This document shows, in pieces, positions 16,174 to 49,370 of a stretch of 64,000 bases of DNA. The stretch lies in IMG/VR virus record IMGVR_UViG_3300037808_002146; one strand, 5' to 3'. Source of the stretch: a virus (lineage: Duplodnaviria; Caudoviricetes). Under the pieces are notes generated by a model, which worked only from the letters and a program-made list of their open reading frames with translations, made no database searches and was not told the DNA's origin. Every line of letters starts with the position of its first letter. Within the stretch, counting starts at the first letter, position 1. The position numbers and the translations under genes were made by a program.

Positions 16174-16189
16174 ACTATATCTCCTTTAT

Positions 16190-17232: not shown

Positions 17233-17296
17233 TATTTTAACCTTCCACTAGTTATTAACGAAGAACAAGGACTCATTCCTTGCTCCTTATGTTCTT

Positions 17297-17325
17297 ATTA
17301 TACCACACCCTCAGTTTATTTGCAC
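17297..17325 (-). promoter_or_regulatory. sigma70-type promoter GTGCAA-N17-TATAAT upstream of the sigma gene
   Basis: Minus strand GTGCAA ataaactgagggtgtgg TATAAT. Confidence 0.7.
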
Positions 17326-17337
17326 GATTTTGTTTTT

Positions 17338-28475: not shown

Positions 28476-29162
28476 CTATTTTCCTTGCTTTGCTTTAGAC
28501 ATAGCTTCGACTTTTGCAATTCTTTCTTCTATCCTAGACCACCTAAGTTCTTTCATCATTGCGAAAGTATAAGATCTTTTATCGCCTAGGTAATCTCGGT
28601 AATATGCGTGCTCCCAGCAATCCAAAACCACAACCGGATAGCTAGCAAAAGGAACATGCTTACTGTTTAAGTCGATTATAACATTCATATACCGATTTAA
28701 GAAAAAGTTATATACAGTCACGGCCCAACCATTACGAGAACTAAGAGCGCACGCAATAAAATCCTTTTGCCACGCATCAAACGATCCAAAATCTCTCTCC
28801 AGTCTCATGAAAGCTATTGAGTCCATGTTGATAACTGAATTTTGGTCTCCTATATTTTCGAAATAATAAGCATGCAAAAAAGAAGCGTTTAAGTTATAAA
28901 CTTCGTCTTCCTTGAGGGATCGAAGCTTAGAGTTGTTAATGTCCGCTAATTCTCTCTCGGCGGTATCTAAAAAAGCTGATACTTCATTCAATTTCTTGAC
29001 ATGATCTTCCAGGATTTGCTGGTGGCTTTTCTTAGTTTTTTCGCTTAGAAGTTCGGTAGAGATTTCATACTTCTTAGACTGCGTAACGTACGCTTCATTT
29101 AATTCGTTTTTAAGAGAATTGTTTATCTCTTTTAAAACTCGCTTTTTCATATCTTTCATCAA
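28476..29162 (-). CDS. sod: Fe/Mn superoxide dismutase family protein with N-terminal extension
   Basis: KSH, FLHAYYFENI, DFGSFDAW, LDCWEHAYYRDY. Confidence 0.88.
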   Translation of the reverse strand: MMKDMKKRVLKEINNSLKNELNEAYVTQSKKYEISTELLSEKTKKSHQQILEDHVKKLNEVSAFLDTAERELADINNSKLRSLKEDEVYNLNASFLHAYYFENIGDQNSVINMDSIAFMRLERDFGSFDAWQKDFIACALSSRNGWAVTVYNFFLNRYMNVIIDLNSKHVPFASYPVVVLDCWEHAYYRDYLGDKRSYTFAMMKELRWSRIEERIAKVEAMSKAKQGK

Positions 29163-29536
29163 TCAACCTCGTAGTTCTTTTCAAAATCGTCTTCATCAAT
29201 AGAAAATTCAGAGTCGTTCGCGTCTGGCATTTTAACTAACTCTTCTTCTTGGCCAGCTATTACATGAGATGTAGAAACTGGGGCTTGAATCCTTGGAGAT
29301 TCTGGAGTTCGAAGGGTAATTTTAATTACCCCGTCTTTGTCTTTTATCTTTTTTATCGTATATTCAAAACCAGATTTCTTATGCCTAACTTTCAAATCAG
29401 GCTCTAAGACTATTCTGCCTTTTTTATCGCTAACGGAAGTCTCTTTTAGAAGAGAGACTATTTTTAATCTATCTTCGTATTCTTTTAGTAGAAGAGCTTT
29501 TAAAAAAGTTTCTGGTCTGTTCATCTTAAACCTCAT
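29159..29536 (-). CDS. hypothetical protein (putative virion)
   Basis: LLKEYE and LLKET motifs. Confidence 0.65.
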   Translation of the reverse strand: MRFKMNRPETFLKALLLKEYEDRLKIVSLLKETSVSDKKGRIVLEPDLKVRHKKSGFEYTIKKIKDKDGVIKITLRTPESPRIQAPVSTSHVIAGQEEELVKMPDANDSEFSIDEDDFEKNYEVD

Positions 29537-29957
29537 TATTAACTAAGTATTTTCTACAAATTATTCCAGACTTATCTAGAATACCTAAACCATCGCTATC
29601 ACGATAATCTTCGGTATACACTATTTCGGAAATGCCGGCATTCACTATTGCTTTAGCGCACATTTTGCAAGGGCTTAAAGTCAAATACATGACTTTCCGC
29701 TTAGGATTATTATAGTCCATTTTTAGCAAACAGTTTATTTCTGCATGAATAAAACCAGAATGTCCGGGTACTTCAGATTCAACTTTGTTTGGACCGCCGG
29801 CATGGTTCCCGTTGTACCCAACTGATAAAACTTGTGTATTGTCAGAAGTTACTACTATAGCACCTACTTTATATCTAGGATCATACGATCTTTCGGAAAT
29901 TGAGTTTGCTACATTTGCCCAAACTTTATCCCAAGATGGCCTTGATTCATTTATCAT
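29526..29957 (-). CDS. dCMP deaminase family protein
   Basis: KVGAIVV, GYNG, HAEINC, TLSPCKMCAKAI. Confidence 0.92.
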   Translation of the reverse strand: MINESRPSWDKVWANVANSISERSYDPRYKVGAIVVTSDNTQVLSVGYNGNHAGGPNKVESEVPGHSGFIHAEINCLLKMDYNNPKRKVMYLTLSPCKMCAKAIVNAGISEIVYTEDYRDSDGLGILDKSGIICRKYLVNNEV

Positions 29958-32334: not shown

Positions 32335-32919
32335 TTACTCGTTTATGAAATGAGCAAAACATTTAGGCTGATACATTTCCGATCCCCCTACCTCTATTCT
32401 TTCATGACCTTCACCTGATATTTTTTCAGTAAAATAAGCATCTTCGCCACAACCGGAACAAACCGCGGGACATATTTGTATGTTAGTAGCCCATGGGAGC
32501 ATTTTATTCATTTCTTTATAGGGCTCCCCATTAGAAGAAAGTTGAAGACTAGAAACTAAAACGGTTTTTCCAGATTTATAAATATCTATCAAAACATCGG
32601 AAACCCCATCGATCATGAAAGCCTCGTCTAAAGCAACAACGTCTACTTCATGTTGCTTGTTATAGGCGTTAAAATATCGATATAAATCAAAGCTAGAGTT
32701 TACCCTAATCATTTTATTAAAATTATCCTTACCGCACTTCCACTCTATGCCAGAATGCGTTACTACCGAATCTTCAGAATACCTTACGTCGACTCTTGGC
32801 TTAAAAAGCAAGACATTCTTATTTTGATACTTGTATCTTTCCAAAGCGGAAAGCAACCTAGTAGTTTTTCCACCAAACATAGGACCAGTAAATATTTCAA
32901 ATCTAGGGTTATTCTTCAT
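32335..32919 (-). CDS. tdk: thymidine kinase (TK1 type)
   Basis: GPMFGGKTTRLL, LLFKP, DEAF, CSGCG zinc site, IEVGGSEMYQPKC. Confidence 0.92.
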   Translation of the reverse strand: MKNNPRFEIFTGPMFGGKTTRLLSALERYKYQNKNVLLFKPRVDVRYSEDSVVTHSGIEWKCGKDNFNKMIRVNSSFDLYRYFNAYNKQHEVDVVALDEAFMIDGVSDVLIDIYKSGKTVLVSSLQLSSNGEPYKEMNKMLPWATNIQICPAVCSGCGEDAYFTEKISGEGHERIEVGGSEMYQPKCFAHFINE

Positions 32920-33898
32920 TAGTACTCCACCAAGCTATAGTTTTATCCAAACCCTCCCTTAAATCTACTTTACTAGTAAAACCTAAGATTTCTCTAGATT
33001 TAGAAATTTCAGCTCTCGTATGCCTAACATCCCCAACTCTCTCTGGGGCATTTATTATCTTTATTTCAAACCTCTCCCTAAGCAAATCAAGTATATCATT
33101 ATTACTATAACTTTTGCCAGTTCCTATATTAAAAATATCGCCTGAAAATTTTGCTTTGTTTAGCGAAGCGATAATATTAGAATCTACAATATCACCAACA
33201 TATACCATATCACGAGTTTGTTCACCGTCGCCGTCGCTTCTGAGTGGCTGTAACCTTTTAATTTTATCCATCCAAGCTGATATTGCTGTAGAATATGGGC
33301 TGTCGCCTAACTGCCCTGGTCCATAAGCATTAAAGTACCTTAAGCAAACGCTGTCTAAGTCGTAAAGCTTCGAGTAAAGAGAACAATAATCTTCGACTAT
33401 TCTTTTTTGAAGTGCATATGGAGATTCAGGGTTAGTCTCTCCGGATTCTATAGATGGAAAATTATCTAAAGAGTTACCATAAATCGCAGATGAGCTACTA
33501 AACACAAACCTTTTAACGTTATCGATGCAAGCTGTCATAAGCAAGACTGATTTTGTAACATTCTGTTCTGTTGTTACAACCGGATTTTTTACAGAATACT
33601 CAACCCTTGGTAATGCTGCTAAGTGGAAAATTATATCGTATTTTTTTTCCGCAATCCTCGATAAAATCTGAGGAGCTGCAAAATCTCCCGTGATTACCAA
33701 AGTTTTATTAGAGTCTTTAGAAGAATCATATCTAGCTAGTAGTCCTGGAGTTATAACCCTAATATCTATAGAAGAGATGTTATCTATGTCTCCATTGGAG
33801 AGATCATCTACAACGTCTACTCTCCACCCTAGATTCACCAGTTTTTTAGTTAGGTTAGAACCAATAAAACCACACCCGCCGGTAACTAAAGCTCTCAT
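32909..33898 (-). CDS. NAD-dependent nucleotide-sugar epimerase/dehydratase
   Basis: TGGCGFIGS, FHLAA, SSSSAIYG, SPYALQK, LRYFNAYGP, TRDMVYV. Confidence 0.93.
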   Translation of the reverse strand: MRALVTGGCGFIGSNLTKKLVNLGWRVDVVDDLSNGDIDNISSIDIRVITPGLLARYDSSKDSNKTLVITGDFAAPQILSRIAEKKYDIIFHLAALPRVEYSVKNPVVTTEQNVTKSVLLMTACIDNVKRFVFSSSSAIYGNSLDNFPSIESGETNPESPYALQKRIVEDYCSLYSKLYDLDSVCLRYFNAYGPGQLGDSPYSTAISAWMDKIKRLQPLRSDGDGEQTRDMVYVGDIVDSNIIASLNKAKFSGDIFNIGTGKSYSNNDILDLLRERFEIKIINAPERVGDVRHTRAEISKSREILGFTSKVDLREGLDKTIAWWSTNEE

Positions 33899-35052
33899 AG
33901 TTCTCCCGAAGTTGTCTTTATGTTATCTTGTCTATAATTGGAAAAACCAGAATCTTCTAACTCTCCATGGAGATATTTTATTACTTCGTATGTCATATCT
34001 CTCGCGGTGCAAGTTGGAACATTTTGAGCTACATCATTTAATCTCTTGGTTTGAAGATTAAAGTCAGATGGAAGTCCCATTAGGTGCATTATCTCTCTAT
34101 GACTCATCCCTCGGGGTTGGGTAGGGTGCATTATCATTTGCAAAGTTCTTCCAACTATTGCGTTAGTACATGAATTATAAAAAGCTGGAGAATGATCTAA
34201 AAAACTTTTCCCCATAGACAGCTTGTTTTTGATGTGTTCAAATTTTCTAACTTCTTTGTGTTCTGGGTTGTGTGTTGTAAGCCACTCTAAACATTCATCA
34301 ATCAATTCGTTTCGTACGATAAATTGGTGAATTGAGTGAGCTGGACCAGAACCAAACTCGCCGATAAAGTCTTTATGCGAAAACCCATATTTTTCAAGCA
34401 AAAAAGTGTAAGAAGGGAATTTTTCAAAAATATTGTTTATATTGTATAAGTCTTGTTGTTTTGAACTGCCAGGAATTTTTCCTAAATAATCAATCAAATT
34501 ATCGTGCTCCCTATCATACCAATTCATAATCGGAGCATTTTTCGAATCCCAAAAAAAATAAAATGTTCGCAGCCTCTTTTGAGGAATCCCATGCTTGAAT
34601 GTCGAAGTTCTATATATTGAAAAAGAGTATCCATTATCTTCAGCGATTTGCTTAAGCTGCTCTCTAACGCTATTTCCTGATTTTGTATAAAGGGCTGGAG
34701 CATTTTCTCCCCAGTAAACCTTTGGCCTAAGTTGCTCTAAAACTAGTTTCGATGTTTTCATCATCCAAACATTTTGGCTATCTCTAGTTGACCGATCTTG
34801 ACTGGTATTCAGTTGACTCAATCCCGCACAAGGGCAAACTGAGTTGACAAAATCTAAATTATCTTCTGGCAAAATAGATTCGTCTAAGTCGATTCTCCTA
34901 ACATTAGGCCAGTAGTTAACTAAGTGGTTTTCGTTTTGCTCAAAAGCCTTAAAGCTCAAATGAAACTTGGGTAAGTTTCCAGTTGCTTGGCTACATCCTA
35001 TCGCAGATCCGCCTATTAACGGGATCATAGTAGCCCAAGATATATCACTCAT
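33895..35052 (-). CDS. C5-cytosine DNA methyltransferase-like protein
   Basis: Motif IV PCAGLS, motif VI GENAP, motif VIII PQKRLR; motif I is atypical (IPLIGG). Confidence 0.75.
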   Translation of the reverse strand: MSDISWATMIPLIGGSAIGCSQATGNLPKFHLSFKAFEQNENHLVNYWPNVRRIDLDESILPEDNLDFVNSVCPCAGLSQLNTSQDRSTRDSQNVWMMKTSKLVLEQLRPKVYWGENAPALYTKSGNSVREQLKQIAEDNGYSFSIYRTSTFKHGIPQKRLRTFYFFWDSKNAPIMNWYDREHDNLIDYLGKIPGSSKQQDLYNINNIFEKFPSYTFLLEKYGFSHKDFIGEFGSGPAHSIHQFIVRNELIDECLEWLTTHNPEHKEVRKFEHIKNKLSMGKSFLDHSPAFYNSCTNAIVGRTLQMIMHPTQPRGMSHREIMHLMGLPSDFNLQTKRLNDVAQNVPTCTARDMTYEVIKYLHGELEDSGFSNYRQDNIKTTSGEL

Positions 35053-36446
35053 TTTTTTCTCCTAACCCTCTTTTGCTTGTAACAAGCAAACTCTCTACGA
35101 GCTTTCTTCTCGAAGAAACATAACGATTGATTTGTAACTTGTTTAATACCAACAGCTGGGATTTTTCCTTGTTCGATTATCTTGAGGTAGTCTTCAAAAA
35201 CTCTTTCGCTTTGAAAGAGGTGGGTGAGCATCTCTTTGTCATTTGTGAATTTGTTGTTGTCTTTTCCAGCCTTTAGAATATAGTCAAACATTTCTGGCAA
35301 AACGTTGTCAGCGTTAAACTCTCTATCGATAAAATCAAAACTAGAATCCCTGTATTTTTGTTGCTCTAACGGGTTGTTAGCAATTGATATTAGTTTATCC
35401 GCTGTTTCTCCCAAGTCGTCTCGAGAAGACCAAACAGCTAGATAGTCGTTATCGATGTACTTACTCCCGTTGGAATCAGTGTTATGTTCTCCATAGTGTT
35501 TATCAAAAACAGGAATAGTTCCACATCCTATAATTTCGATTTGTGTATACTCCATCCTATCGCCATAGTTGTGTGGTTCTTTTGGTAGCCGGTAAAAAGA
35601 GCAGCCAAATAAAGAGGTGGAGATTAGATCCATACCGTCAGCATAATCATACGGGCCAAAAGTGGGAACTCCATCAAGATCCCAGTCATAATTTTCAAAC
35701 TTCAAATTATAGATAGAATTTGGGTGATCTATAATATCGAACTTAGCCCCAATAGAGCGTTCAATACCGTGAAGAGCTAAACGAAAAGATGGATCTTTTT
35801 CTTTCATTATAGGATATAAATCTAAAACGCGGCGAGGATCCTTCATAGAAGTCCAGCGACCTACGTAAGTTAGTTTTCGTTCCTTTTCATTTAAGCTAAA
35901 TTTATCCCTATAATTTTTCTTTAATTCAGATAAATCTACCCACATTTTGAATCTCTTTGTTCTTTCCCCTAAGACTTTGCTGGGCAAATATGAGGAAAAC
36001 TCTTTTGAAAAGAAAGTTTTTTCCGAGAAATTATAAACAATATCACAGTAATTTAGAATAGGGATAATCATCGGAATAGCATCGATATTAGCTTTTTTAA
36101 TTTCGTGCATCATTCCAACCAAGACTGGTTTTTTAATCTTTTTAACTAAACCCTCATAAAAAGACATCACTGCTTGAGGAGAATGCTTAGAGGAGGGATA
36201 AGAGTTGAGAATAACTGTATCATATTCGCGGTTTAGCTTCTCAACCAGAGAGGGGATCTCTGTATGCTTAAACTCAATTGGCTCAATTGGCATAGAGTGC
36301 CCTTTAGCTCTAGCAAAGCTTCGTCCTTTCATAAAAAATATATCAAATTTGACATCATTCCTTTGCGCCCAAGTAGCAATCTCAACTGCTCCTCTTTGAA
36401 CGCCACAGCCATCAAGCCCTTTGCCAAAAATCATAGCAATTTTCAT
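35049..36446 (-). CDS. GT-B glycosyltransferase resembling T4 DNA alpha-glucosyltransferase
   Basis: GKGLDGCGV, LNSYP, VGRWTSMKD, GIERS, MEYTQIEIIGCGTIPVF parallel T4 AGT segments as I recall them. Confidence 0.75.
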   Translation of the reverse strand: MKIAMIFGKGLDGCGVQRGAVEIATWAQRNDVKFDIFFMKGRSFARAKGHSMPIEPIEFKHTEIPSLVEKLNREYDTVILNSYPSSKHSPQAVMSFYEGLVKKIKKPVLVGMMHEIKKANIDAIPMIIPILNYCDIVYNFSEKTFFSKEFSSYLPSKVLGERTKRFKMWVDLSELKKNYRDKFSLNEKERKLTYVGRWTSMKDPRRVLDLYPIMKEKDPSFRLALHGIERSIGAKFDIIDHPNSIYNLKFENYDWDLDGVPTFGPYDYADGMDLISTSLFGCSFYRLPKEPHNYGDRMEYTQIEIIGCGTIPVFDKHYGEHNTDSNGSKYIDNDYLAVWSSRDDLGETADKLISIANNPLEQQKYRDSSFDFIDREFNADNVLPEMFDYILKAGKDNNKFTNDKEMLTHLFQSERVFEDYLKIIEQGKIPAVGIKQVTNQSLCFFEKKARREFACYKQKRVRRKK

Positions 36447-36898
36447 TTATTTTTTCTCCCCGTTTTTAAGACTCTTTCCCTCAACTGCGTAGTAGAGAAA
36501 GAATGCCTCCTATTATTATAATGGATAGGACATAAGTCAACGCCTGTATGGTTTGTGCCTTTGTACTCTTCTCCAACTACCCTAATGTCTGGGTTTATTG
36601 TCAAGATTACATCAACTAAATCTTTTTCAGAACCAAATGGAATTATTTCATCTACATATTTGCATGCAGCTAACTGCAAATATCTTTCCATAATACTTTG
36701 AATTGGCTTATTCTTTATTTCTGGACGATCGTTTGTAGGATCTGTCAAGAGTCCTACGATCAAGTAATCACAAAGCGATTTACTTTCCTGCAGCATCACA
36801 ACATGTCCAGCATGGAATAAGTCGAAAGTAGAACACGTAAAACCAACAATCGGATCTCTTCCCAAGCTTTCTGCTAGTTTCTTTTTATCTAAAAACAA
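36443..36898 (-). CDS. cytidylyltransferase (TagD/RfaE-like HxGH family)
   Basis: TFDLFHAGH, LIVGL, KYVDEII, GEEY, FSTTQLR. Confidence 0.88.
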   Translation of the reverse strand: MFLDKKKLAESLGRDPIVGFTCSTFDLFHAGHVVMLQESKSLCDYLIVGLLTDPTNDRPEIKNKPIQSIMERYLQLAACKYVDEIIPFGSEKDLVDVILTINPDIRVVGEEYKGTNHTGVDLCPIHYNNRRHSFSTTQLRERVLKTGRKNK

Positions 36899-37973
36899 TT
36901 TTTACTTCCTTGAAAATATCTTGAATTCTTTTTCTTACAAGGCTTTTTTGGTTTTCGGGCTTATACTTTAGCATTCTGATATAATGAATCATCTCGCACA
37001 ATAAGAAATACCTAGAAAAATTAGGTTTAAATAACCCAAGTAGATGACTAAAAAGATCCTCTTTATCAACTTTAGCTTCAAAACCAGAAAAACTTTCTTC
37101 GTAAGAAGAGTGTAAAGATTGATATATCTTTCCAACGTCCATAACCCAAGAACTATATACATTTCCTGGACAATTAGGGTCTATGAGGTATACTTTTTCA
37201 CCTCTAACGATGCAATTTTCAAAAGTAAGATCTCCATGAGAAAAGCTAGCTTCGATATTCATAAAATCAGCAACTTGATCGCTTTCTAAGAGTTTAATAA
37301 TATCACTTTCGTTTCTTACAGCGTTTAAAGACATATGATCTTTAACACGATCAACCATAGTTTGCCAATTGCTGTTAGTAACTTTTATATCACTAAACCT
37401 TGTTAGCAAATCTACCAAATAATCTATGTGCTCTTTGGTGCATACATCATTTAAGCTAACTCCGTCCAAGAACTCCATGTCCAAAGTATCTCCATAATAA
37501 GTATTAACTTTTGGAACATGACATAAACTACCAGCTGAATTATACCAGTGTGCTTGGTCTTTAGCGTTGCTAGCTTTTTTGATGATTCTATCACCAACTT
37601 TCTCTACAGAGCCTCCCGATCCACCTTTTAAGACTTCATAGTCTAAATCCATAAATTCCTCTGGGCGGATTGCTTTATCGTCGATGTAGTATACCCCGAT
37701 TGGTTTTCCAAACATCAAACTGTGATACTTCACGCTGTGTTTCTCCATCCAAGACTCTAAAACTGGTCGACGAAGCTGGTTTATTAAGTCTAAGTCTCCG
37801 CTACATGAAACCTGTCCTCGAGCGGTAAAATATATAATTTTCCAACCCGATTCATACATCTTGTTAAGTTTGTTGATAATTTTAGTATGAGGAACTGCAT
37901 TTTCATAATCACGATTCCGATGTGTAGATATCGTGTCATCAACATCGACGACTAGAGTTCGTGTTTCTACCAT
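36885..37973 (-). CDS. HAD phosphatase (capsule-biosynthesis type) fused to an APH/choline-kinase-like domain
   Basis: VDVDDT, YFTARG, FGKP, YYIDDKA; then HGDLTFEN and YLIDPN; start revised to MVETRTL (TAATG overlap). Confidence 0.8.
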   Translation of the reverse strand: MVETRTLVVDVDDTISTHRNRDYENAVPHTKIINKLNKMYESGWKIIYFTARGQVSCSGDLDLINQLRRPVLESWMEKHSVKYHSLMFGKPIGVYYIDDKAIRPEEFMDLDYEVLKGGSGGSVEKVGDRIIKKASNAKDQAHWYNSAGSLCHVPKVNTYYGDTLDMEFLDGVSLNDVCTKEHIDYLVDLLTRFSDIKVTNSNWQTMVDRVKDHMSLNAVRNESDIIKLLESDQVADFMNIEASFSHGDLTFENCIVRGEKVYLIDPNCPGNVYSSWVMDVGKIYQSLHSSYEESFSGFEAKVDKEDLFSHLLGLFKPNFSRYFLLCEMIHYIRMLKYKPENQKSLVRKRIQDIFKEVKIVFR

Positions 37974-38410
37974 TAAATTACTCCTGTACTCCCAAAACCA
38001 CCTTCGCCTCTTTGGGAATTTACACAAAATAAATCCTCAATGCAAACTTCCTCGATAGAATCGTAAAAAACTGGAACTAAAATCATTTGTACTAGTTTTT
38101 CACCAGCACAAATAGTTTCTGCTTTGTTTCCAAAATTGTAAACATGGAGATGGATTTCACCTTGATAGTCTTCATCTACGATACATGCGCCAACGGATAA
38201 ACTTCTCTTTAAAGCAACCCCGCTTTTATTAAAAACTATTAAAGCAAACCCATTAGGTACGTTCGCTTTTACGCCACTAGGAATGCAAGCTGAGTTTCCT
38301 GGTTCAACGACAAAATTTTCAAAATCGTTAGGGACAAAGAAATCTATACCGGCAGATTTTTCAGTTCCCCTAATTGGGGTTTTTACATCTTTAATTTTAG
38401 AAATCTTCAC
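37973..38410 (-). CDS. dut: trimeric dUTPase
   Basis: SAGIDF, NKSGVA, IVDEDYQGEI, KLVQMI, RGEGGFGSTG; probable GTG start at 38410. Confidence 0.92.
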   Translation of the reverse strand: MKISKIKDVKTPIRGTEKSAGIDFFVPNDFENFVVEPGNSACIPSGVKANVPNGFALIVFNKSGVALKRSLSVGACIVDEDYQGEIHLHVYNFGNKAETICAGEKLVQMILVPVFYDSIEEVCIEDLFCVNSQRGEGGFGSTGVI

Positions 38411-38685
38411 AGTTTTTCCTCTTTTATAAAATTGTGCCAAGCGCCTAAATAGGCAACAGCATCTAACAAATTGTCATCTTTGAAATTATAAGATTGGCGG
38501 CTTAGTTTGAGGGCAACAAGTGATATATACATATCATGAGCTGTAATATCCTTTCCGGACATGCCTCTAGCGATACTAGCAGCTCTTTGCATCCCTTCAC
38601 CAAAAGGTCCATACTCTCTTTCTTTTTCTTCAGATCTTTCGTTGACGATTTGATTTGCTTGCTTTAAGATATTGTCTTTATTCAT
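38407..38685 (-). CDS. small all-helical protein (DUF6378-like)
   Basis: ILKQANQIVNERS..YG...LKLSRQ...DNLLDAVAY; start revised to MNKDNILK. Confidence 0.6.
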   Translation of the reverse strand: MNKDNILKQANQIVNERSEEKEREYGPFGEGMQRAASIARGMSGKDITAHDMYISLVALKLSRQSYNFKDDNLLDAVAYLGAWHNFIKEEKL

Positions 38686-39508
38686 CACTAAAAATTTCTC
38701 CACTGCAGTTTTTAACATAATCGTATATTTCAGCTTTTTCAACCTCTGCGATAGGAAAAGAAAAATTTTCATTAATCAACTTCCAGTTAACGTTACTGTT
38801 CAATCTACAAGTATCTAATCCTTTGTCAACATTAAAGTCACTACTATTTATACTTTCAATCATTTTGTAATGCTTTTCATAAACATGCAAGCTACCAGCG
38901 TAGTGAAAGTAACTCCCTAGTTCTAAGCTCATGCCAGTTTCGTTTAGTTCATTCAACATAAGCTGCTGAAATAGCGAAAAGGTGAAAACATCGTTACACA
39001 AACCGAAAATTAAATCGTTAGATCTCATATTAACGCCTAGGTGGAGTTTATTATCCCTAACGAAAAACTGAATATAGTGCGTGCAAGGATAGTCTTTTGA
39101 ATTCTTGAACTTATGATAAGGTTGATTTATCACAAAAGTTGCACGGCGAGTATCTCGATCAATTATAATCTCGTTTTTCACCCAGTTCCATTGCGGTTTT
39201 AGATAGACTCCATAATTGGATTCAACTTCGCAAAATTGATCTGAAATCATTTTCCATATTTTAGCTAATTTCCCGATATTTAAGGAAGAAGAATTAGCAG
39301 ACAAGTACCACATCCACTCTGCTATGGCATAATTTTTGTTAAATTTTCTCTCTGGTAGCGTAACGTTAATACGCGTAGGATCTGAAATTTCAAAGCTTTG
39401 GAATATCACTTCCTTTTGTTTGGAGTTTCTTGCATTCACTTCAGGAGAATCTAGTAAAACAGAGCTATAGTGTTTTAGTAGATGGTTTATAGAGTTAAAT
39501 TTATTCAT
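38678..39508 (-). CDS. thymidylate synthase superfamily, dCMP hydroxymethylase-like
   Basis: DYPCTHYIQF...MRSNDLIFGLCND; the residue 31 positions after the catalytic Cys is Asp; GSLHVYE. Confidence 0.8.
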   Translation of the reverse strand: MNKFNSINHLLKHYSSVLLDSPEVNARNSKQKEVIFQSFEISDPTRINVTLPERKFNKNYAIAEWMWYLSANSSSLNIGKLAKIWKMISDQFCEVESNYGVYLKPQWNWVKNEIIIDRDTRRATFVINQPYHKFKNSKDYPCTHYIQFFVRDNKLHLGVNMRSNDLIFGLCNDVFTFSLFQQLMLNELNETGMSLELGSYFHYAGSLHVYEKHYKMIESINSSDFNVDKGLDTCRLNSNVNWKLINENFSFPIAEVEKAEIYDYVKNCSGEIFSDE

Positions 39509-39514
39509 GTAATA

Positions 39515-42500
39515 TTATACTTCAAAAATCTTAATTTTTCTAAATTGAGTTGAAAAGCCAAAATCAGACTTATCAAGTTCGGCAACACAAAGTGAGTAAG
39601 GATTCAAAATAGAATCTTCTTTCGTACCCCAACAGAATACCCTATTTTTTTCCCCATTAGATCCTATAGCATCTAAAAGAAAGTAAGGCTTATTGTTTTT
39701 AGTTTTCTTTTTATTAACCTTAGTAGCTACTAGCCAATAAAGATTTTTTTGATTCCACTCTTCTATAGGGAGGATAGATAACTCTTCAAACCTGCTAGAT
39801 AACTTTTCAGGAATTAAATTACCAACATTTATAGTTCCAAGTAAAGATTCTTCAAACTCCATATTTTCTTTAATGCTCCAGTCTTCACTCGGGTAATTTA
39901 GAGAAACTTCGTTCAAATTGTCTCTTCCTTGAAAAGGATTCTTTTTAGTGCTCTTTCTTAATGCTGGCCAATTTTCGCTAACACATTCGTAGAATTGCTT
40001 GTAAGATTCAAAATAACCTTGCCAATCTAGGGAATCCAGTGCTCTAATCTTCAGGAGAGATTCGAGAGTCTTTTTATTTAATTTTGAGTGTTTCCACTTG
40101 CCATCTTCATTCCAGAGCAGATCATCAATATTTTCATAAGGTCGGTTGTTAAGTATCTCTTCAATAGCTGCCTCGCCTATGCCTTTACAGGAAAAGAAAG
40201 ATGGCATCAAAACCTTATCGTCGACTGGTGTCCAATTTTTTCCAGCTTTATTAAGGTCAATATTTGTTGTCGTGTATCCCAACTTTTTAACTTCACTCAA
40301 TGCTTTGGAAAGCTTGTTTGGATTAGACGAAACTGCTTCGAGGTAAGCGGTTATCCATTCAGCCTCGTAGTAAGTCATTAGCCAAGCGCAATAGTACGAA
40401 TTTATAGCATAAGAAACAGCATGTGACTTATTGAAACCGTAGCCAGCAAAATACAAAATCTTCTCGTAGAGATCTTCGGCGACGTGCTTTTGAACTCCAT
40501 TAGAAATAGATCCGGCAAGGAACTTATCTTTAAGATCTCGAGCTTTTTCGATATTTTCATTTCCAGAACCAACAGGCTTCATCATCTTACGCATTGCGTT
40601 ACATTCGTCTTTCGGGATACCCGCGACGACATGACATAAGTTCATGACTTGCTCTTGAAAGATTATACAACCATAAGTTTCTTTCAAACATTCTTCAATA
40701 AGCGGATGGCCATAAACTACACTTTCTGGATTCTTTTTTGCTCCAATATAAAGTTTATCTACCTTAGCACTCAGCGGGCCAGGACGGTATATAGACGTCA
40801 GAGTTGCGATATCTATTATTGATTCTGGTTTAGCACGCTTAAAGAGGGCTTGAGCGCCCCTCTGCGTGCACTGGAATATAGCAGCCCACTTTCCAGAATG
40901 ATAGACATTTTTATAAACTTTTTGATCGTTAAAATCAATTTCTTTAGTTGACATATTGACATCGAACCATTTTTTCACTTGTTGAAAATCTGGATTTTCA
41001 ATACCCTCTTTCTTAAGAACCAGTCTAATAGTTTGCTCAATTATTCTCAAAGTTTCTAATCCAAGCAAATCAAACTTAATCCACCCAAACTCTTCTAAAT
41101 GCTTATAGTTCATACCTTCAACCCACGGAGTTTGAACTTCTCCACGAGCTAAAATTACAGGCATCCTCTCGGCAATTCTTTCTGAAATTATAACACCACC
41201 AGCGTGGCGACCGAGAGCTTTGTTTTGCTTGAATAAAACCTTTAGAGGATCAAGTATTTCTGGATACTTTTCTAAATAGTTCTTCAAAGATTCTGAGTAC
41301 TTTAAAGCTTCATCAATATGAATATCGAAAGAATCTTCTGATTCTGCATCGTTCTTCCGTCCTCTCTTTACATCTACTTCCAATGGAGCTAAAGCTTTGT
41401 TTGCTTCTTCGAATGGGACTCTATAAAACCTCGAAACGTCCTTAATCAATGACTTCAACTTAAAGGTGTTATAATTCGAAATTGGTACAACATTTGATTC
41501 TCCAAAGTTATCCCTTAATAAAGATATTAACTCGTCACGGTCTCCTACATCAGAATCGATGTCTGGCATTTCGTTTCTCTCTGGAGATAAAAATCTTTCA
41601 AAAAGCAAACCGTTAGAAACTGGATCAACATCCGTGATTCCTAAAGCGTAATTCACCAAACTACCCGCGCCAGAGCCTCTGCCCGGGCCGATGAGCATTT
41701 TTTCTCGCGCAATATCGAGGATAGCTTTCATCGTTAGAAAATATTCGGAAAAATTCTTGCTTTTTATAACCACGAACTCTTCTCTCAATCTCTCAATATA
41801 GATAGGGTTTTCATGTAGACCTCGATCTATCAAGCCTTTCTTACAAAAATCTAAAAGAGCTTGAGTTGCTGTTTTTCCTTTAGGGATTACATAAGATGGT
41901 AATTTCATGCTTCGATCTGGGTTGATGTCTCCAATCTCGTCGTGGACTATGTTGTATGGACGTTCAATAGCTTCGCAAATTATTTGATCGTCGTAAAAAT
42001 CCATGTCAGAAGTTGTACTTAAGTAAGAATCCCACACTTGCTCTGCGTTTTTTGGATAAAGTTCGCAAGAAAGATCGCTTTGAGATTTAGGTAAAGAGTC
42101 TGGATCAAAGTCTCTGAAGTTAAGCCAGCCAAGCTTTTTGTATATTTCTCTTTCCCTCCAGTGTTCCGGGCGAGCGTAATGTGAATCTGTCGTAACTACC
42201 AACTTGTCTGTTAAACCTTGAGATTTTGCAAATTCAATTATAGATCTATTGACCAAGTGCTGAGCCGGAAGCTTGTTAAACTGTAACTCTAACATTACGT
42301 CGTCTATTCCGACGGAATCTACCAAGCCTTGATATGCATTTCCTACGCCATTCATAACTTTGCTTCGAAAAGAGTTATCATCTAAGAGTGTATGACTAAG
42401 ATCGTTAAACTCTACTTGTTGGGCATGCCTAAAAACTTCATAAGCGATTGGGCCGCCTATACATGCAGTAGAAACCATCAAATGACCTCCTTCGGCGGCT

Positions 42501-43096
42501 TCTTTTAACATCTTATAGTCAATCCTAGGAAATCTATAGAAACCTTCTAGGTAACCTTTAGAGACTAAGTTAAAAAGCCTAGACAAGCCTTCTGATGTTT
42601 TTGGAAGGACAACCAAGTGGTGACGCCTCTTGACAGGATCATAAAACTTTGCTGATTTTGATTCTTCCTCGTTTTCAATAGTCAAACTTCCTTCGTCCGT
42701 AGAGAGTTCTACCGTTTCATCGTCTCCATCTACTTTGGCGAACAGTGGAGTTCTAATTCTCTCTCTTTGTTCTCTAAGCTTTAGAATAGACTCTTTGTCG
42801 CCTTTCTTTGCAGCTTTAGCTAATTCATAATCCAGATTCCAAATATCTAGATTTGGGTGAACATACATTTCACATCCGGGGACAAACTTAAAATTACCTC
42901 CACGCTTTTTAATTTTCTCTGCATGCAAGAAAGCGTGAGCAAAACTGTTCATGTGACCATGATTAGTGAGACACCAGCTATCCATCCCGTTTTCTAAAAC
43001 AAAATCTATGTGTTCTTGTGGATATCCCAAGCCATCGAAGGTTGAAAAACCATCATGTGCATGGAGGGAGGTAAACTTTTTTGGAACAATTTTCAT
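39515..43096 (-). CDS. dnaE: DNA polymerase III alpha subunit (DnaE, family C)
   Basis: PHP LHAHDGFS..DG, GPGRGSGAGSLV, MPDIDSD, GRHAGG, KFDLLGL, YGFNKSHA. Confidence 0.96.
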   Translation of the reverse strand: MKIVPKKFTSLHAHDGFSTFDGLGYPQEHIDFVLENGMDSWCLTNHGHMNSFAHAFLHAEKIKKRGGNFKFVPGCEMYVHPNLDIWNLDYELAKAAKKGDKESILKLREQRERIRTPLFAKVDGDDETVELSTDEGSLTIENEEESKSAKFYDPVKRRHHLVVLPKTSEGLSRLFNLVSKGYLEGFYRFPRIDYKMLKEAAEGGHLMVSTACIGGPIAYEVFRHAQQVEFNDLSHTLLDDNSFRSKVMNGVGNAYQGLVDSVGIDDVMLELQFNKLPAQHLVNRSIIEFAKSQGLTDKLVVTTDSHYARPEHWREREIYKKLGWLNFRDFDPDSLPKSQSDLSCELYPKNAEQVWDSYLSTTSDMDFYDDQIICEAIERPYNIVHDEIGDINPDRSMKLPSYVIPKGKTATQALLDFCKKGLIDRGLHENPIYIERLREEFVVIKSKNFSEYFLTMKAILDIAREKMLIGPGRGSGAGSLVNYALGITDVDPVSNGLLFERFLSPERNEMPDIDSDVGDRDELISLLRDNFGESNVVPISNYNTFKLKSLIKDVSRFYRVPFEEANKALAPLEVDVKRGRKNDAESEDSFDIHIDEALKYSESLKNYLEKYPEILDPLKVLFKQNKALGRHAGGVIISERIAERMPVILARGEVQTPWVEGMNYKHLEEFGWIKFDLLGLETLRIIEQTIRLVLKKEGIENPDFQQVKKWFDVNMSTKEIDFNDQKVYKNVYHSGKWAAIFQCTQRGAQALFKRAKPESIIDIATLTSIYRPGPLSAKVDKLYIGAKKNPESVVYGHPLIEECLKETYGCIIFQEQVMNLCHVVAGIPKDECNAMRKMMKPVGSGNENIEKARDLKDKFLAGSISNGVQKHVAEDLYEKILYFAGYGFNKSHAVSYAINSYYCAWLMTYYEAEWITAYLEAVSSNPNKLSKALSEVKKLGYTTTNIDLNKAGKNWTPVDDKVLMPSFFSCKGIGEAAIEEILNNRPYENIDDLLWNEDGKWKHSKLNKKTLESLLKIRALDSLDWQGYFESYKQFYECVSENWPALRKSTKKNPFQGRDNLNEVSLNYPSEDWSIKENMEFEESLLGTINVGNLIPEKLSSRFEELSILPIEEWNQKNLYWLVATKVNKKKTKNNKPYFLLDAIGSNGEKNRVFCWGTKEDSILNPYSLCVAELDKSDFGFSTQFRKIKIFEV

Positions 43097-44123: not shown

Positions 44124-44930
44124 TCACCTTTGAATTTCTGGTACCCAGTGTGTTGTTCTCCCATCGGGAGTTTTATCTTTAATAACTTCATTCCCGTCTG
44201 GATCTTGCTTTTGGTTATACACTAAAAATCTAGAACTGAAATTTCCTACTTCTCCATAAAAATCTTTGTAAGATTTTATTGTAGCTCCGCCTGTTTTGAA
44301 AGATTCTCTCATTACCGACTTTATAGTCTTGTTAAGAATCTGTAAATTTGTATCTGAAATGTCTCTTACTTTTCGAAAGGGGCTAATCCTAGCTAGATAA
44401 AGAGATTCTGATTTAATATAGTTTCCAACGCCAGCAATTACCGATTGATCCATTAAAGCTTTAGTAATGTTTTGTTCTTCTTTTTTTCTTAATGATAGAA
44501 CAAAATCATCGTTGCTAACATCTTCCGATAGCATGTCTGGCCCGAAAGAAGATAGCTTAGCGGATAATTGCTTTGGATCCTGAGAGAGTTTAATAGTTCC
44601 AAAATTTCTCATATCGTTAAAATAGACGCGTTTCCCAGTATCGAAAGTGAAAGACAGCCTTGTATGTTTAGATTCTTTACTCTGCCAAGCCCCCGACATA
44701 CCTAAAGTTGACCACATGCTACTTTTATCTTCAAAAATTACATATATAAATTTTCCATGAACGCCTACGCCTTTTACTTTAGAAGGCAATTTTTCCTTAA
44801 AACTATTTAGATTAGGTAGTTCTTTTTTCAAATACCTTCCTGAAACTACTTCAACCGCAGTTAAAGTTTCCCCACCAATATAGTCTCCTAAAAAAAGGGC
44901 GTACCTCCTGCATTCGGGTCCTTCAGGCAT
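44124..44930 (-). CDS. mutM: Fpg/Nei DNA glycosylase (zincless finger)
   Basis: N-terminal MPEGPE, HGKF, LGMSG, DMRNFG, H2TH MDQSVIAGVGNYIKSESL; C-terminal GRTTHW without Cys. Confidence 0.9.
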   Translation of the reverse strand: MPEGPECRRYALFLGDYIGGETLTAVEVVSGRYLKKELPNLNSFKEKLPSKVKGVGVHGKFIYVIFEDKSSMWSTLGMSGAWQSKESKHTRLSFTFDTGKRVYFNDMRNFGTIKLSQDPKQLSAKLSSFGPDMLSEDVSNDDFVLSLRKKEEQNITKALMDQSVIAGVGNYIKSESLYLARISPFRKVRDISDTNLQILNKTIKSVMRESFKTGGATIKSYKDFYGEVGNFSSRFLVYNQKQDPDGNEVIKDKTPDGRTTHWVPEIQR

Positions 44931-45548: not shown

Positions 45549-46286
45549 CTATGGAGAAATTTGAGATACGACACTTATAATTTGCTGGAGTATCGAAGAA
45601 TTTGATCCTAGATTTTCAACTTCTACTTTATCTTCAAAGAGGGATAGGTTTTTTAATTTAGATAGTTTCTTTTTTTCGCTAACTTTTAATTTTTTTAAAA
45701 GCTTTATAGAAAATTTTAATAAATTAGAGCTTCTTTTAGTAATAGGAACTATCGAGCAATGGGCCGAAATGAAAAAATTTAAACAAAAAAACCTTGTGAA
45801 CTCGATGTCTGATATTAAATCTAAAAAGCTATCGCTCTCAATACCTAACAAAATCGTGTTCGAATCTTTTATTTCGAATTTTCGTATAGATATTCCCAAA
45901 CTTAAGAGTTGATCGCACAAAGACTTTATTGAAGAATTTAGTCTAGCGTTAATATTAACTGCGCCTATATTTTCGTATTCAGTTAACTTACTTTCTTCTT
46001 TCAAAATATATCTTAAGGGAATAGTTCCGCTGGCTTCGCTCGTAGTAGAGGCTAAATTTTCGCTTAAGGATTTAACTGACTTTGAATTTGGAGAACAGTA
46101 ACAAACGAGGCCATTAACAGGATCGTTATAAACTTTGAAAGGAAAAGATTCATGATTTTCTTCAAAACTTGGATTTTCTATAATATAAGTGAATTCTCCA
46201 TTCTCTTCTTTTCGTTCTAACCTTTGAGTATAAGTCCTATAGACTGCAGAATCATTTAATAGATTTTCAAAGTAAGTAACCCACAT
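45549..46286 (-). CDS. hypothetical protein
   Basis: ORF track. Confidence 0.6.
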   Translation of the reverse strand: MWVTYFENLLNDSAVYRTYTQRLERKEENGEFTYIIENPSFEENHESFPFKVYNDPVNGLVCYCSPNSKSVKSLSENLASTTSEASGTIPLRYILKEESKLTEYENIGAVNINARLNSSIKSLCDQLLSLGISIRKFEIKDSNTILLGIESDSFLDLISDIEFTRFFCLNFFISAHCSIVPITKRSSNLLKFSIKLLKKLKVSEKKKLSKLKNLSLFEDKVEVENLGSNSSILQQIISVVSQISP

Positions 46287-46888
46287 TATTCAAGCTCTAT
46301 CTCGATATTTACGTCTACTGTAATCTTCGGTACTCTTAACTGATTAGCTAATCCGTGCTTCTTAGCTTCATCTGCATCTAGAAACCAATCTGCATGCTTT
46401 TTCTTATCGACTAACTTCATGAAGTAGTCATCCTTTTTGCCGCAATTTCTCGCCATCATTGTGTAGATAGTCGTATTGAGTCGATCAGCTTCTTTTGCAC
46501 CAGCTTTGAGTTCCTCAACCTTACCGAAGTCCATGCTAGCAACATCATGAATCATAACCGTTGCATTTGGGTCCATAAATCTTAAACCCTCTTCCCCAAA
46601 AGAGAATAGAATTGCCCCACAAGACATTGCTTTCCCTTCGACAATTGTCGCAATCGGCAACTCTGAATGCTTTATCGCAGATATCATCGCCATTAAGCTA
46701 TAAACTTGACCCCCATATGAGTCGATCACAACTGGTATTACTTTTTGACCAGTGTTATGAGCTCTTGCAATTTCTTGATCAAATTTCTTAGCAGCTTCTT
46801 CGTCGAATTTGTTAACTCTTACGATAACAGGATTGTGACGCATCTCTACTTCTTTTATCAGGGGCGATATTTTTGTTGTCCACTTCAA
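46286..46888 (-). CDS. clpP: ClpP-like protease subunit
   Basis: IDSYGG, GKAMSCG (catalytic Ser), PNATVMIHD (His), DWFLDADEA..GL; probable TTG start after the AAGGAG RBS. Confidence 0.88.
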   Translation of the reverse strand: MKWTTKISPLIKEVEMRHNPVIVRVNKFDEEAAKKFDQEIARAHNTGQKVIPVVIDSYGGQVYSLMAMISAIKHSELPIATIVEGKAMSCGAILFSFGEEGLRFMDPNATVMIHDVASMDFGKVEELKAGAKEADRLNTTIYTMMARNCGKKDDYFMKLVDKKKHADWFLDADEAKKHGLANQLRVPKITVDVNIEIELE

Positions 46889-46901
46889 TTTTCTTTTCTC
46901 C

Positions 46902-49370
46902 TTAAGAACACTTTGAATAGCCGCAAGAAGTACATGCAACGCAACCCTCTTGGTACTTTAATGAATTTTCAGCTCCGCACTCGGGACAAACTTTACTCCC
47001 GCCAGGAACTGTTCCATCATCAATATATTTTTTAAGAACTCTAGAGATAACCTTCGCAAAAGAAAATAAGTGAGCATCTCTATCTTTCTGAAGTTGTTCT
47101 ACTATATACTGAATTGGAGCTCCATGACGTAACGCTAAAGATATAACTCGGGTGAAGCCAGCGTAATCTGGGTTATCGAATACCTTAACAATATCCTTAA
47201 CTACAACTTCACTGCCATTTTCCCCAAAATGCAAATCATACTTCGAAGCCATAGTTTTTCTAGAACGTTTCGTAATTTTCCCATACGAATAAGTTGGTGG
47301 GATTTCAATATATTCAGATTTTCCACCTAAAACCTCATAAGGTCGGCCGGACATTAGACCAACCAAAATAGTCCAAGCTTCGCCTTTTACCTGAGTCCTA
47401 TGTATTTCACACTCCAGAGTTTCTGGTCGTTTTGGAGCATTAACAACTTCTACAGAATTGTTGTTTTCTCTCGACTCAGCACTCACTAAAACTCCAGAAC
47501 GACATCCATCCCTATAGACTGTCAAACCTTTTAGTCCTTGCTTCCAACCCCTCCAATAGACATTTTTAACATCGTCTATTGAGACTTCTCTTGGCAAGTT
47601 TATCGTTTTGCTAATCGCATGGCAAACCCATTTTTGAGCCGCAGCTTGTACGTCAACAGCGGATTCCCAGTTAATCTCGTTTGCAGTGGACAAGTTGTAG
47701 GGACTATCCTCTATTTTAGACAACCCTGATATATTCATCCAGTCTTTGAAGCCATGATGATAAACATCGAACTCTCGCCACTCATCTCCTAGATCATCAA
47801 CAAAGTCTACTTGAGCTTCGAGATCATTCGGATTAACCTTTTTCCTCCTCGTATACTTTAGCATAAAGGCTGGTTCAATCCCGGATGTTGTTTGAGTGAG
47901 CATCGATACACTTCCGCAAGGTGCTGTGGTTGTCAATGCTATGTTTCTTCTACCATGAAGAGAGTGCAAATCTCTAACTTCTGAGCTTTGTTCAAAAATT
48001 CTTTTGATAAATGGGTGATTTAATTCTTTTTCGAAATCGTATACAGGGAAAGCTCCACGCTCTTTAGCTAACAAGCAAGAAGAAGTATACGAAGAGATGC
48101 AAAGGTTTTTATATATCTTTTCTGTCTCATTTATGCTCTCTTCACTGCCATACGTTAACCCGAGCATTGCTAAAGTATCCCCTAGACCTGTAACTCCTAA
48201 ACCTGTCCTTCTCCCATTAATTGCAGCTTTTTTTACTTTGTTCCAAAGATCGAGCTCTGTAGATTTAACGGAATCTGACTCTGGATCTGCTTTAATTTTT
48301 AAAATGATTTTATCAACGCATTCCATTTCAAGATCAATCAAATCATCCATCAGTCTTTGAGCTTTTTTGGTGTTTTTATCAAAAAGCTCGTAATTAAACC
48401 TGCTTTGTTTTGTGAATGGCTTTTCAACAAATGACGTTAGATTCAAAAGTAAAAGTCGGCAACTATCATATGCTGAGAGCGTTATTTCGCTGCATGGGTT
48501 TGTACTAACAGTGTCGAAACCAACATCGCTGTAAGCTTGCGCGGGAGTGTATTTTAAGACATTGTCCCAAAACAAAAGACCAGGTTCAGCGGAAGTATGA
48601 GCTGACTCAATTATTTGATCCCAAAGCTTTGACGCATCAGTTGTTCTAGACACTAGCTTATTTTCTTCACCGGAAACCGGATACCTTAGTTCAAATTCCT
48701 TTTTTTCCTCAACGGCTTCCATAAATTCGTCGGAAAGCCTTATTGATATATTGGCTCCAGTTACTTTCGTCAAGTCTCGCTTGATATTAACAAAAGTTTC
48801 AATATCGGGGTGGTGAACTGAGATTGTTAGCATTAGAGCACCGCGGCGTCCTCCTTGAGCAACTTCTCTGCAACTATTTGAAAACCTTTCCATAAAGATG
48901 CCAATTCCGTCTGTTGTTTTTGCTGCGTTGGAAGTAGATAGACCTTGAGGTCTAATTGAGGATATATCAAACCCTACGCCTCCGCGGCGTTTCATAATCT
49001 GGACTTGCTCTTGATCAGTTTTTAAAATTCCACCGTAGGAATCTTGAGGTGCTTCTACAACAAAACAGTTAGAAAGAGACTGAATTTGGTTTGTGTTGCC
49101 AATGCCAGACATTGGAGATCCCTGGGGAACTACGTACTTAAAGCCCTCTAGCAGCGAGTATATTTCGCTTTCAGACATAGGGTTAGGATAATTCGATTCA
49201 ATCCTAGCAAACTCAGAAGCAATTCTTTTATGCATATCATTTGGATTTTTTTCCAAAAAAGATCCGTCTTTTGAGACTAAAGCGTATTTAGTAGCAAAAA
49301 CATTGGCTGCTAATTCGTCTCCACCAAAATATTTCTTGCTTGATTCCACGACTTCTTCAAAAGTATACAT
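46902..49370 (-). CDS. nrdJ: ribonucleotide reductase, class II (adenosylcobalamin-dependent)
   Basis: SLSNCFV, RRGGVG, TNPCSEI, RRTGLGVTG, TAPCGSVS, C-terminal CxxC...GYSKC; no beta subunit adjacent. Confidence 0.9.
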   Translation of the reverse strand: MYTFEEVVESSKKYFGGDELAANVFATKYALVSKDGSFLEKNPNDMHKRIASEFARIESNYPNPMSESEIYSLLEGFKYVVPQGSPMSGIGNTNQIQSLSNCFVVEAPQDSYGGILKTDQEQVQIMKRRGGVGFDISSIRPQGLSTSNAAKTTDGIGIFMERFSNSCREVAQGGRRGALMLTISVHHPDIETFVNIKRDLTKVTGANISIRLSDEFMEAVEEKKEFELRYPVSGEENKLVSRTTDASKLWDQIIESAHTSAEPGLLFWDNVLKYTPAQAYSDVGFDTVSTNPCSEITLSAYDSCRLLLLNLTSFVEKPFTKQSRFNYELFDKNTKKAQRLMDDLIDLEMECVDKIILKIKADPESDSVKSTELDLWNKVKKAAINGRRTGLGVTGLGDTLAMLGLTYGSEESINETEKIYKNLCISSYTSSCLLAKERGAFPVYDFEKELNHPFIKRIFEQSSEVRDLHSLHGRRNIALTTTAPCGSVSMLTQTTSGIEPAFMLKYTRRKKVNPNDLEAQVDFVDDLGDEWREFDVYHHGFKDWMNISGLSKIEDSPYNLSTANEINWESAVDVQAAAQKWVCHAISKTINLPREVSIDDVKNVYWRGWKQGLKGLTVYRDGCRSGVLVSAESRENNNSVEVVNAPKRPETLECEIHRTQVKGEAWTILVGLMSGRPYEVLGGKSEYIEIPPTYSYGKITKRSRKTMASKYDLHFGENGSEVVVKDIVKVFDNPDYAGFTRVISLALRHGAPIQYIVEQLQKDRDAHLFSFAKVISRVLKKYIDDGTVPGGSKVCPECGAENSLKYQEGCVACTSCGYSKCS

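Follow-up and report, generated by a model that had tools for sequence, protein, structure and literature searches.

What does a gene do that looks like a thymidylate synthase (TS) but carries the specificity residue of a cytosine enzyme? The question is raised by the open reading frame (ORF) 38678-39508 of the virus record IMGVR_UViG_3300037808_002146 (Duplodnaviria; Caudoviricetes), within a 64,000-nucleotide stretch that was analysed whole and is called the window below. The gene very probably codes for a folate-dependent deoxycytidylate 5-hydroxymethyltransferase with the function of T4 gp42. Judged from its diagnostic residues, the enzyme should yield 5-hydroxymethyl-deoxycytidine monophosphate (5-hydroxymethyl-dCMP), not 5-methyl-dCMP or 5-hydroxy-dCMP, and this gene of an uncultured marine giant phage most likely stands at the head of a familiar type of cytosine-replacement pathway.

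The ORF is a real gene, because its 276-amino-acid (aa) translation matches Pfam PF00303 (Thymidylat_synt; E 3.8e-15), has 925 homologues at E <= 1e-5 in a database search, and gives an AlphaFold2 model with a mean predicted local distance difference test score (pLDDT) of 97 from an input alignment of 101 sequences. The protein, called the TS homologue here, matches four PHROG families, all labelled thymidylate synthase, and is one of a large family of marine metagenomic proteins, Tara and JGI sequences among them; automatic pipelines (JGI) name its relatives thymidylate synthase. Long ORFs in the window all lie on the minus strand, the guanine-plus-cytosine content is about 37% and there are no tRNAs, so that the window resembles part of a large phage genome. 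From a 143-kb IMG/VR fragment of a relative, rated 52% complete, a genome size near 275 kb follows; the window covers about a quarter of such a genome.

The specificity residue

The TS homologue contains KDYPCTHY and, further on, NMRSNDLIFGLCND (ORF translation). The initial annotation had pointed to an Asp 31 residues after the catalytic Cys of DYPCTHY, within GLCND, had equated these two residues with Cys146 and Asn177 of E. coli ThyA and with Cys148 and Asp179 of T4 gp42, and had argued that the enzyme acts on dCMP rather than being a true TS. The Asp is present as Asp173, 31 residues after Cys142, and in an alignment with references fetched from records (E. coli K-12 ThyA, NC_000913; T4 gp42, NC_000866) both residues share columns with their named counterparts, E. 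coli-equivalent positions being assigned by counting from the catalytic Cys. Asp173 is not a chance substitution, because all 120 of the closest database relatives keep its equivalent, as do 255 of 259 metagenomic relatives with identities as low as about 33%; this wider set includes representatives of 50%-identity clusters, and three of the four other sequences differ through insertions or deletions only. Further key residues are Glu64, Ser97-Asn-Tyr99, Arg121/Arg122, Asp139, Thr143, Arg162-Ser163, Asp165, His208 and Tyr210. Cys142, Glu64 and Asp139 are invariant in a 101-sequence alignment (A1), and Glu64 and Cys142 correspond to Glu60, the general acid of the T4 enzyme, and to its Cys148.

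Relative to ThyA, the TS homologue has Asp for Asn177, Asp for Leu143, Thr for His147 and Ile for Trp83. The rule that distinguishes Asp from Asn177 goes back to 1992 and has already been applied to metagenomic phages, and in the MetaGPA study Asp177 together with a residue other than His at position 147 was enriched on phage contigs experimentally shown to carry modified cytosine (PMC8670742). Thr143 of the TS homologue sits at His147, the second residue that differs on those contigs (PMC8670742). Because the rule is this old and is already in use on metagenomes, the enzyme as such is no surprise; the initial observation holds but concerns an ordinary enzyme, in an unusual host phage.

An enzyme acting on deoxyuridine monophosphate (dUMP), either a true TS or a dUMP hydroxymethylase, would agree with the automatic annotation, with the finding of no second TS in the window and with the presence nearby of a deoxyuridine triphosphatase (dUTPase) and of a dCMP deaminase, both of which make dUMP. 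Both ThyA and the SPO1-type dUMP hydroxymethylase, however, have Asn where the TS homologue has Asp, and two NCBI ThyA equivalog models score it at 46 (cut-off 175) and 42 (cut-off 327), far below what they require. Relatives at 51-54% identity have, besides this gene, a ThyX of canonical type with the RHR motif, encoded 6-9 kb upstream of dnaE (448-1164 in locus L019 and 3460-4179 in locus L020), so their thymidylate supply is independent of the Asp-type enzyme. Action on dUMP is therefore extremely improbable. The SPO1 gp29-type enzyme (Bacillus phage Goe9 gp29) falls with the hydroxymethylases in the tree described below and shares the Asp three residues before the catalytic Cys (Cys-3), but it has 383 aa, acts on dUMP and has Asn and a one-residue insertion at the specificity position.

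The initial annotation was also right that no canonical TS is encoded in the window. Six reference proteins found a single TS-fold locus there, the ThyX proteins of the relatives found no match, and Pfam and PHROG scans of all window ORFs of at least 190 aa gave neither ThyA nor ThyX; the 143-kb fragment is likewise without ThyX. The absence of ThyX, and that of the nucleotide enzymes discussed later, was assessed in the window and three IMG/VR fragments. This absence carries little weight, because the window is only part of the genome and the 51-54% relatives carry ThyX nearby. The sole ThyX-like string, an RHR...S motif in a small ORF at 507-956, was taken as chance, since the relatives' ThyX matches nothing in the window.

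Which cytosine chemistry

Three different cytosine-nucleotide chemistries exist in the TS fold, and residues that mark particular enzymes have been described. In T4 dCMP hydroxymethylase the Asp at Cys-3, where TS has Leu, activates a water molecule for hydration of the methylene intermediate; the D145N enzyme is inactive, and this Asp together with Ser-x-Tyr forms the hydroxymethylase signature (Park et al., PMC6400193). RB69 gp48 and its relatives synthesise 5-hydroxy-dCMP in a flavin-dependent reaction and are recognised by an Asn where E. coli ThyA has Asp169; the changes N177D, L143D/E and D169N have been described (Lee et al. 2026, PMC13326640). MilA prefers cytidine monophosphate (CMP) owing to Ala176 and Lys133, which replace Ser and Arg (Zhao et al., PMC5175136).

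At E. coli positions 143, 169 and 177 the TS homologue has D,D,D, identical to T4 gp42, whereas RB69 gp48 has E,N,D, the Xp12 TS-like protein N,D,D and ThyA L,D,N. Its Ser97-Asn-Tyr99 corresponds to Ser94-x-Tyr96 of T4 (SNYG in both), and it retains Ser163 and Arg121/Arg122, the counterparts of T4 Ser169 and Arg123/124 and a deoxyribose-preferring set from which MilA differs. Every sequence-level test of membership applied places the TS homologue with T4-type dCMP hydroxymethylase (EC 2.1.2.8), and the tests that define ThyA (EC 2.1.1.45), the 5-hydroxy-dCMP synthases and the MilA-type CMP enzymes each leave it outside.

The D,D,D signature was also seen in two phage proteins that are annotated otherwise. 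Agathobaculum phage AB434P2_00007 (284-946 in L014) is annotated as a deoxyuridylate hydroxymethyltransferase and carries this cytosine/hydroxymethyl signature. Ralstonia phage RsoM2USA_10 (353-1189 in L013) is annotated as hypothetical, and by this signature the 344-kb phage RsoM2USA may make 5-hydroxymethylcytosine too.

Were the TS homologue a flavin-dependent 5-hydroxy-dCMP synthase of the RB69 gp48 or HY126 AfhB type (PDB 9IQU, 9IQC), its pathway would lead to 5-hydroxycytosine glycosylated via an ether bond. Such synthases share with the TS homologue the TS fold, the dCMP-specifying Asp at N177 and an acidic residue at Cys-3 (L143), and AfhB is a Foldseek match to the model (1.4e-15). 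Their product is glycosylated in DNA, and near the TS homologue is a fusion protein whose HAD domain is 39% identical to RB69 gp51 (E 3e-18), a member of the arabinose donor pathway. The diagnostic D169N change is nevertheless not present: Asp165 is kept in the TS homologue and in 258 of 260 aligned relatives, where the synthases have Asn (PMC13326640). These synthases have lost several folate-site residues, whereas the TS homologue keeps all of them; Gly169, a Trp and Tyr210 (EcThyA G173, W80 and Y209) are retained here and replaced in RB69 gp48. The pairwise match to RB69 gp48 (5e-13) is much weaker than that to T4 gp42 (1e-23), and the glycosyltransferase homologue encoded downstream resembles T4 AGT, not the RB69 arabinosyltransferases. 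A 5-hydroxy-dCMP synthase is thus very unlikely, and the residues favour a hydroxymethylase.

Similarity, fold and phylogeny

A sequence search of the PDB returned T4 dCMP hydroxymethylase at 1.9e-20 and MilA at 3e-17, with the best true TS at 1e-9. Foldseek on the model ranked MilA first (6e-20; template modelling scores 0.74-0.79), followed by T4 dCMP hydroxymethylase (3e-18) and then by TS and AfhB. MilA from Streptomyces rimofaciens (PDB 5B6D, 5JNH) shares with the TS homologue Asp at both the N177 and L143 positions and a long C-terminal region. Its top rank and its sequence match would fit a CMP ribonucleotide hydroxymethylase whose output goes into a free base or nucleoside and not into DNA. 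MilA serves antibiotic biosynthesis, however, and its Ala176 and Lys133 favour ribose where the TS homologue has retained the Ser (Ser163) and Arg that favour dCMP. The gene also lies between a DNA polymerase and a dUTPase, in a block with a DNA glycosyltransferase homologue, a thymidine kinase and a dCMP deaminase, and no MilB-like N-glycosidase was seen. A MilA-like role deserves hardly any credence.

An alignment and trees with T4 gp42, ThyA and a dUMP hydroxymethylase place the TS homologue on the hydroxymethylase side. In an IQ-TREE analysis of 64 sequences, ThyA clusters with the Xp12 protein (100/97), and a branch with 99/97 support sets these two and the long-branched Bacteroides phage protein BF503P4_13 apart from the rest, which comprises the TS homologue, T4 gp42, the SPO1-type dUMP hydroxymethylase and all other sequences. 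A second tree that includes RB69 gp48 has an identical split (99) and groups the TS homologue with T4 gp42. All sequence tests that were run (residues, ThyA model scores, PDB matches and trees) support the proposal that the enzyme would use dCMP and is not a true TS.

The protein of Xanthomonas phage Xp12, a presumed dCMP methyltransferase reported to make 5-methyl-dCMP, is the pattern for another possibility, in which the TS homologue would hold dCMP by the same Asp, make 5-methyl-dCMP and end its reaction by hydride transfer from folate. It shares Asp at the N177 position with the TS homologue, both have the fold, catalytic Cys, Glu, Tyr and Arg that E. coli ThyA also has, and N177D mutants of true TS methylate dCMP according to work cited in PMC8670742; the C-terminus of the TS homologue is also longer than that of T4 gp42. 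Several differences argue for a hydroxymethylase instead. Xp12 and ThyA form a separate, supported clade (99-100% support), have a TS-like C-terminal tail and carry Asn or Leu at Cys-3, and their methyl transfer yields dihydrofolate. The Asn of Xp12 at this position is the change that kills hydroxymethylation by the T4 enzyme (PMC6400193). A dihydrofolate reductase gene lies adjacent in Xp12, and none was found among the scanned window ORFs. DNA glycosyltransferases of the T4 AGT family require a hydroxyl on the base, so the AGT homologue downstream speaks for a hydroxymethyl rather than a methyl product. We consider a dCMP methyltransferase very improbable.

Proposed reaction

T4 gp42 (PDB 1B5D, 6A9A) and the TS homologue have in common the TS fold and the Glu, Ser-x-Tyr, Arg-Arg, Asp at Cys-3, Cys-Thr, Met-Arg-Ser-Asn-Asp, Asn-Asp and His-x-Tyr elements, although they are only about 28% identical. 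TS-fold enzymes dimerise. Fold, residues, side of the family tree and gene context are shown by the data above and below; for substrate, product, incorporation into DNA and glycosylation we infer the following course, with the chemistry taken from the T4 enzyme. Cys142 would attack C6 of dCMP, while Asp173 would bind N3 and the 4-amino group of the cytosine and so exclude dUMP. The methylene of 5,10-methylene-tetrahydrofolate would be moved to C5, and a water activated by Asp139 and positioned by Ser97 and Tyr99 would hydrate the exocyclic methylene without hydride transfer, to give 5-hydroxymethyl-dCMP and tetrahydrofolate. Some kinase would then phosphorylate 5-hydroxymethyl-dCMP, the DnaE-type replicase of the phage would incorporate it, and the T4-AGT-like glycosyltransferase would decorate the hydroxymethyl group in DNA with a sugar probably activated by the products of the phage HAD-kinase, nucleotidyltransferase and epimerase genes.

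Several observations weigh against this reading or narrow it. No cultured phage matches the window in a DNA-level search, and the lineage is known from metagenomes alone. Within the hydroxymethylase side the deep branches have poor resolution and the branches of the reference sequences are long, so that the trees give the side of the family and no exact sister group. About 55 residues forming two helices follow the HVY motif of the TS homologue and are absent from T4 gp42. No recognisable deoxycytidine triphosphatase (dCTPase) or gp56-like protein was found in the window, and no deoxynucleoside monophosphate kinase of the T4 gp1 type, the Walker-A proteins being thymidine kinase and RecA only; the Walker-A motif searched for was GK plus a following Ser or Thr, which a T4 gp1-type loop could escape, and the scan covered about a quarter of the genome. 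With neither of these enzymes recognised, replacement of cytosine may be complete or only partial. The cluster also holds a conserved C5-methylase-like gene, whose product would be without substrate if all cytosine were replaced; its conservation suggests that replacement is incomplete or that the protein has another job.

The gene directly downstream of the TS homologue in every relative examined, DUF6378, was considered as the missing dCTPase, an assignment that is not supported. Its product is strongly conserved (41 invariant columns across 40 sequences) and helical (pLDDT 85), with a likeliest start at Met30 that overlaps the stop codon of the TS homologue by 8 nt. It has no sequence match in the PDB and no Foldseek match at E <= 0.001. 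VIA-align gave tied rows only, with Z about 5-6, below the stated noise level for helical bundles, two of them MazG-related; hhalign against T4 gp56 gave a probability of 0.1%, and a literature search returned nothing on the family.

Gene neighbourhood and sugar supply

The genes from the TS homologue to the thymidine kinase are tightly packed, mostly with overlaps of 4-14 nt (Table 1). A TATAAT just 5' of the TS homologue start codon was considered as an operon start and rejected; it is not evidence of one, because in a promoter scan sigma-70-like sites are no commoner (39) than in shuffled sequence (43.3).

Table 1. Positions of the TS homologue, its diagnostic codons and the neighbouring genes in the window.
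Feature	Position	Strand	Remarks
TS-fold dCMP hydroxymethylase homologue	38678..39508	minus	276 aa; PF00303, alignment, AlphaFold2 model
Asp173 codon	38990..38992	minus	T4 gp42 Asp179, E. coli ThyA Asn177; decides cytosine versus uracil (PMC8670742, PMC13326640)
Asp139 codon	39092..39094	minus	Cys-3; T4 Asp145, E. coli Leu143 (PMC6400193)
Asp165 codon	39014..39016	minus	E. coli Asp169, T4 Asp171 (PMC13326640)
Catalytic Cys142 codon	39083..39085	minus	alignment
DnaE-type DNA polymerase III alpha	39515..43096	minus	1193 aa; ends 6 nt before TS homologue start
DUF6378 helical protein	38407..38685	minus	about 92 aa counted from Met30; Pfam, predicted structure
Trimeric-type dUTPase homologue	37973..38440	minus	155 aa; profile matches
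HAD phosphatase/APH-like kinase fusion	36885..38027	minus	HAD part like RB69 gp51; probably activates sugar donor
Cytidylyltransferase-like nucleotidyltransferase	36443..36898	minus	151 aa; HIGH-motif type; probably makes a nucleoside diphosphate (NDP) sugar
T4 DNA alpha-glucosyltransferase homologue	35049..36446	minus	465 aa; PF11440 AGT; PDB match
C5 cytosine DNA methylase-like protein	33895..35052	minus	385 aa; PF00145 at 2e-16
NAD-dependent sugar epimerase/dehydratase	32909..33898	minus	329 aa; profile matches
Thymidine kinase	32335..32919	minus	194 aa; profile match
dCMP deaminase	29526..29957	minus	143 aa; profile match

The AGT homologue, four genes downstream of the TS homologue, has a PDB match to T4 AGT only, which is full-length and spans the entire catalytic part (residues 1-392, E 4e-19), and the acceptor that it uses is presumed to be the hydroxymethyl group in DNA. 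The genome of the window resembles that of T4 in encoding a protein of this family. RB69 gp51, which the HAD domain of the fusion resembles, is a sugar-bisphosphate phosphatase that acts at the arabinose-1,5-bisphosphate step of the route to the uridine diphosphate (UDP)-arabinose donor (PMC13326640). Because of this resemblance the donor is probably an NDP-sugar that the phage makes itself, in place of host UDP-glucose, which is the donor in T4. The nucleotidyltransferase that follows the fusion belongs to a family different from that of the published UDP-arabinose route, and no sugar-phosphate isomerase (SIS) gene was seen among the window genes. Other differences from T4 are the DnaE-type polymerase, where T4 has one of family B, and the lack of an adjacent gp56-type dCTPase or gp1-type kinase in the window.

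Because it turns dCMP into dUMP, the dCMP deaminase is a competitor of the hydroxymethylase for this substrate. The same neighbourhood holds a ribonucleotide reductase and an Fpg glycosylase. The C5-methylase-like gene scores well below the NCBI dcm cut-off.

Relatives and variable decoration genes

Loci at 70-76% identity have their whole gene order in common with the window, and the order DnaE, TS homologue, DUF6378, dUTPase is kept in relatives at 51-76% identity. The three loci at 51-54% identity have this block at one end and thymidine kinase with DHHA1 at the other, and the genes between differ. In two of them (P0108 and P0090) the HAD-kinase, nucleotidyltransferase and AGT genes give way to genes for a myo-inositol-1-phosphate synthase, a methyltransferase, a small protein and a protein of 481-494 aa (12603-16387 in L019). 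In one of the two, the 481-494-aa protein, that of L019, has a weak match to the helical domain of 5-hydroxymethyldeoxyuridine (5-hmdU) DNA kinase. The third 51-54% locus has three proteins of no assigned family between the conserved ends.

The C5-methylase-like gene is found in the same place, after the variable decoration genes and before the epimerase gene, in the window, L002 (14447-15604), L003, L004, L019 (16387-17565) and P0090, and not in L020; it and the epimerase gene precede the thymidine kinase gene in the P0108 and P0090 loci, but neither does so in L020. A dCMP deaminase gene follows in L019 and L020, the two loci whose DNA extends that far.

The gene set of L019 and P0090 points to the same hydroxymethyl base with another decoration. 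Because the ends of the locus are conserved and the middle genes differ, the Asp-type enzyme, on gene order, appears as the constant entry point and decoration as a swappable module. More broadly, and only tentatively, since we put it at somewhat less than an even chance, the enzyme could be the conserved entry to a modular cytosine hypermodification in abundant uncultured marine giant T4-like DnaE phages, with 5-hydroxymethylcytosine carrying a sugar other than glucose that is made by phage genes in part related to the RB69 arabinose pathway, and with modules exchanged among relatives. If so, the modules swapped in would include the inositol-1-phosphate synthase, the methyltransferase and the 5-hmdU-kinase-like protein, and the lineage would carry DNA bases so far undescribed.

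The main interest therefore lies in the variable decoration module behind the enzyme. The hydroxymethylase reading mends an automatic thymidylate synthase annotation and predicts a widespread group of marine giant phages that replace or supplement cytosine with decorated 5-hydroxymethylcytosine. Such bases would affect host restriction and CRISPR, restriction-based and bisulfite-type methods, and sequencing.

Other genes in the window

A complete Fpg/Nei-type DNA glycosylase gene (44124-44930, minus strand) lies between dnaE and the ribonucleotide reductase gene, a position kept in relatives, and is of note in a phage with predicted modified pyrimidines. Besides DnaE, a 385-aa ORF (55410-56567, minus strand) has a family A DNA polymerase domain (PF00476, 6e-12), and RecA, a gp32-like single-stranded DNA-binding protein, a DnaB-like helicase and a flap endonuclease are encoded between the two polymerases. 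Cell-like auxiliary genes occur on the minus strand at 13558-19171, 28476-29162 and 46286-46939; they encode GroEL (527 aa), a sigma-factor-like protein, a peptide deformylase, a dehydrogenase, a protein with an Fe/Mn superoxide-dismutase C-terminal domain and a ClpP protease.

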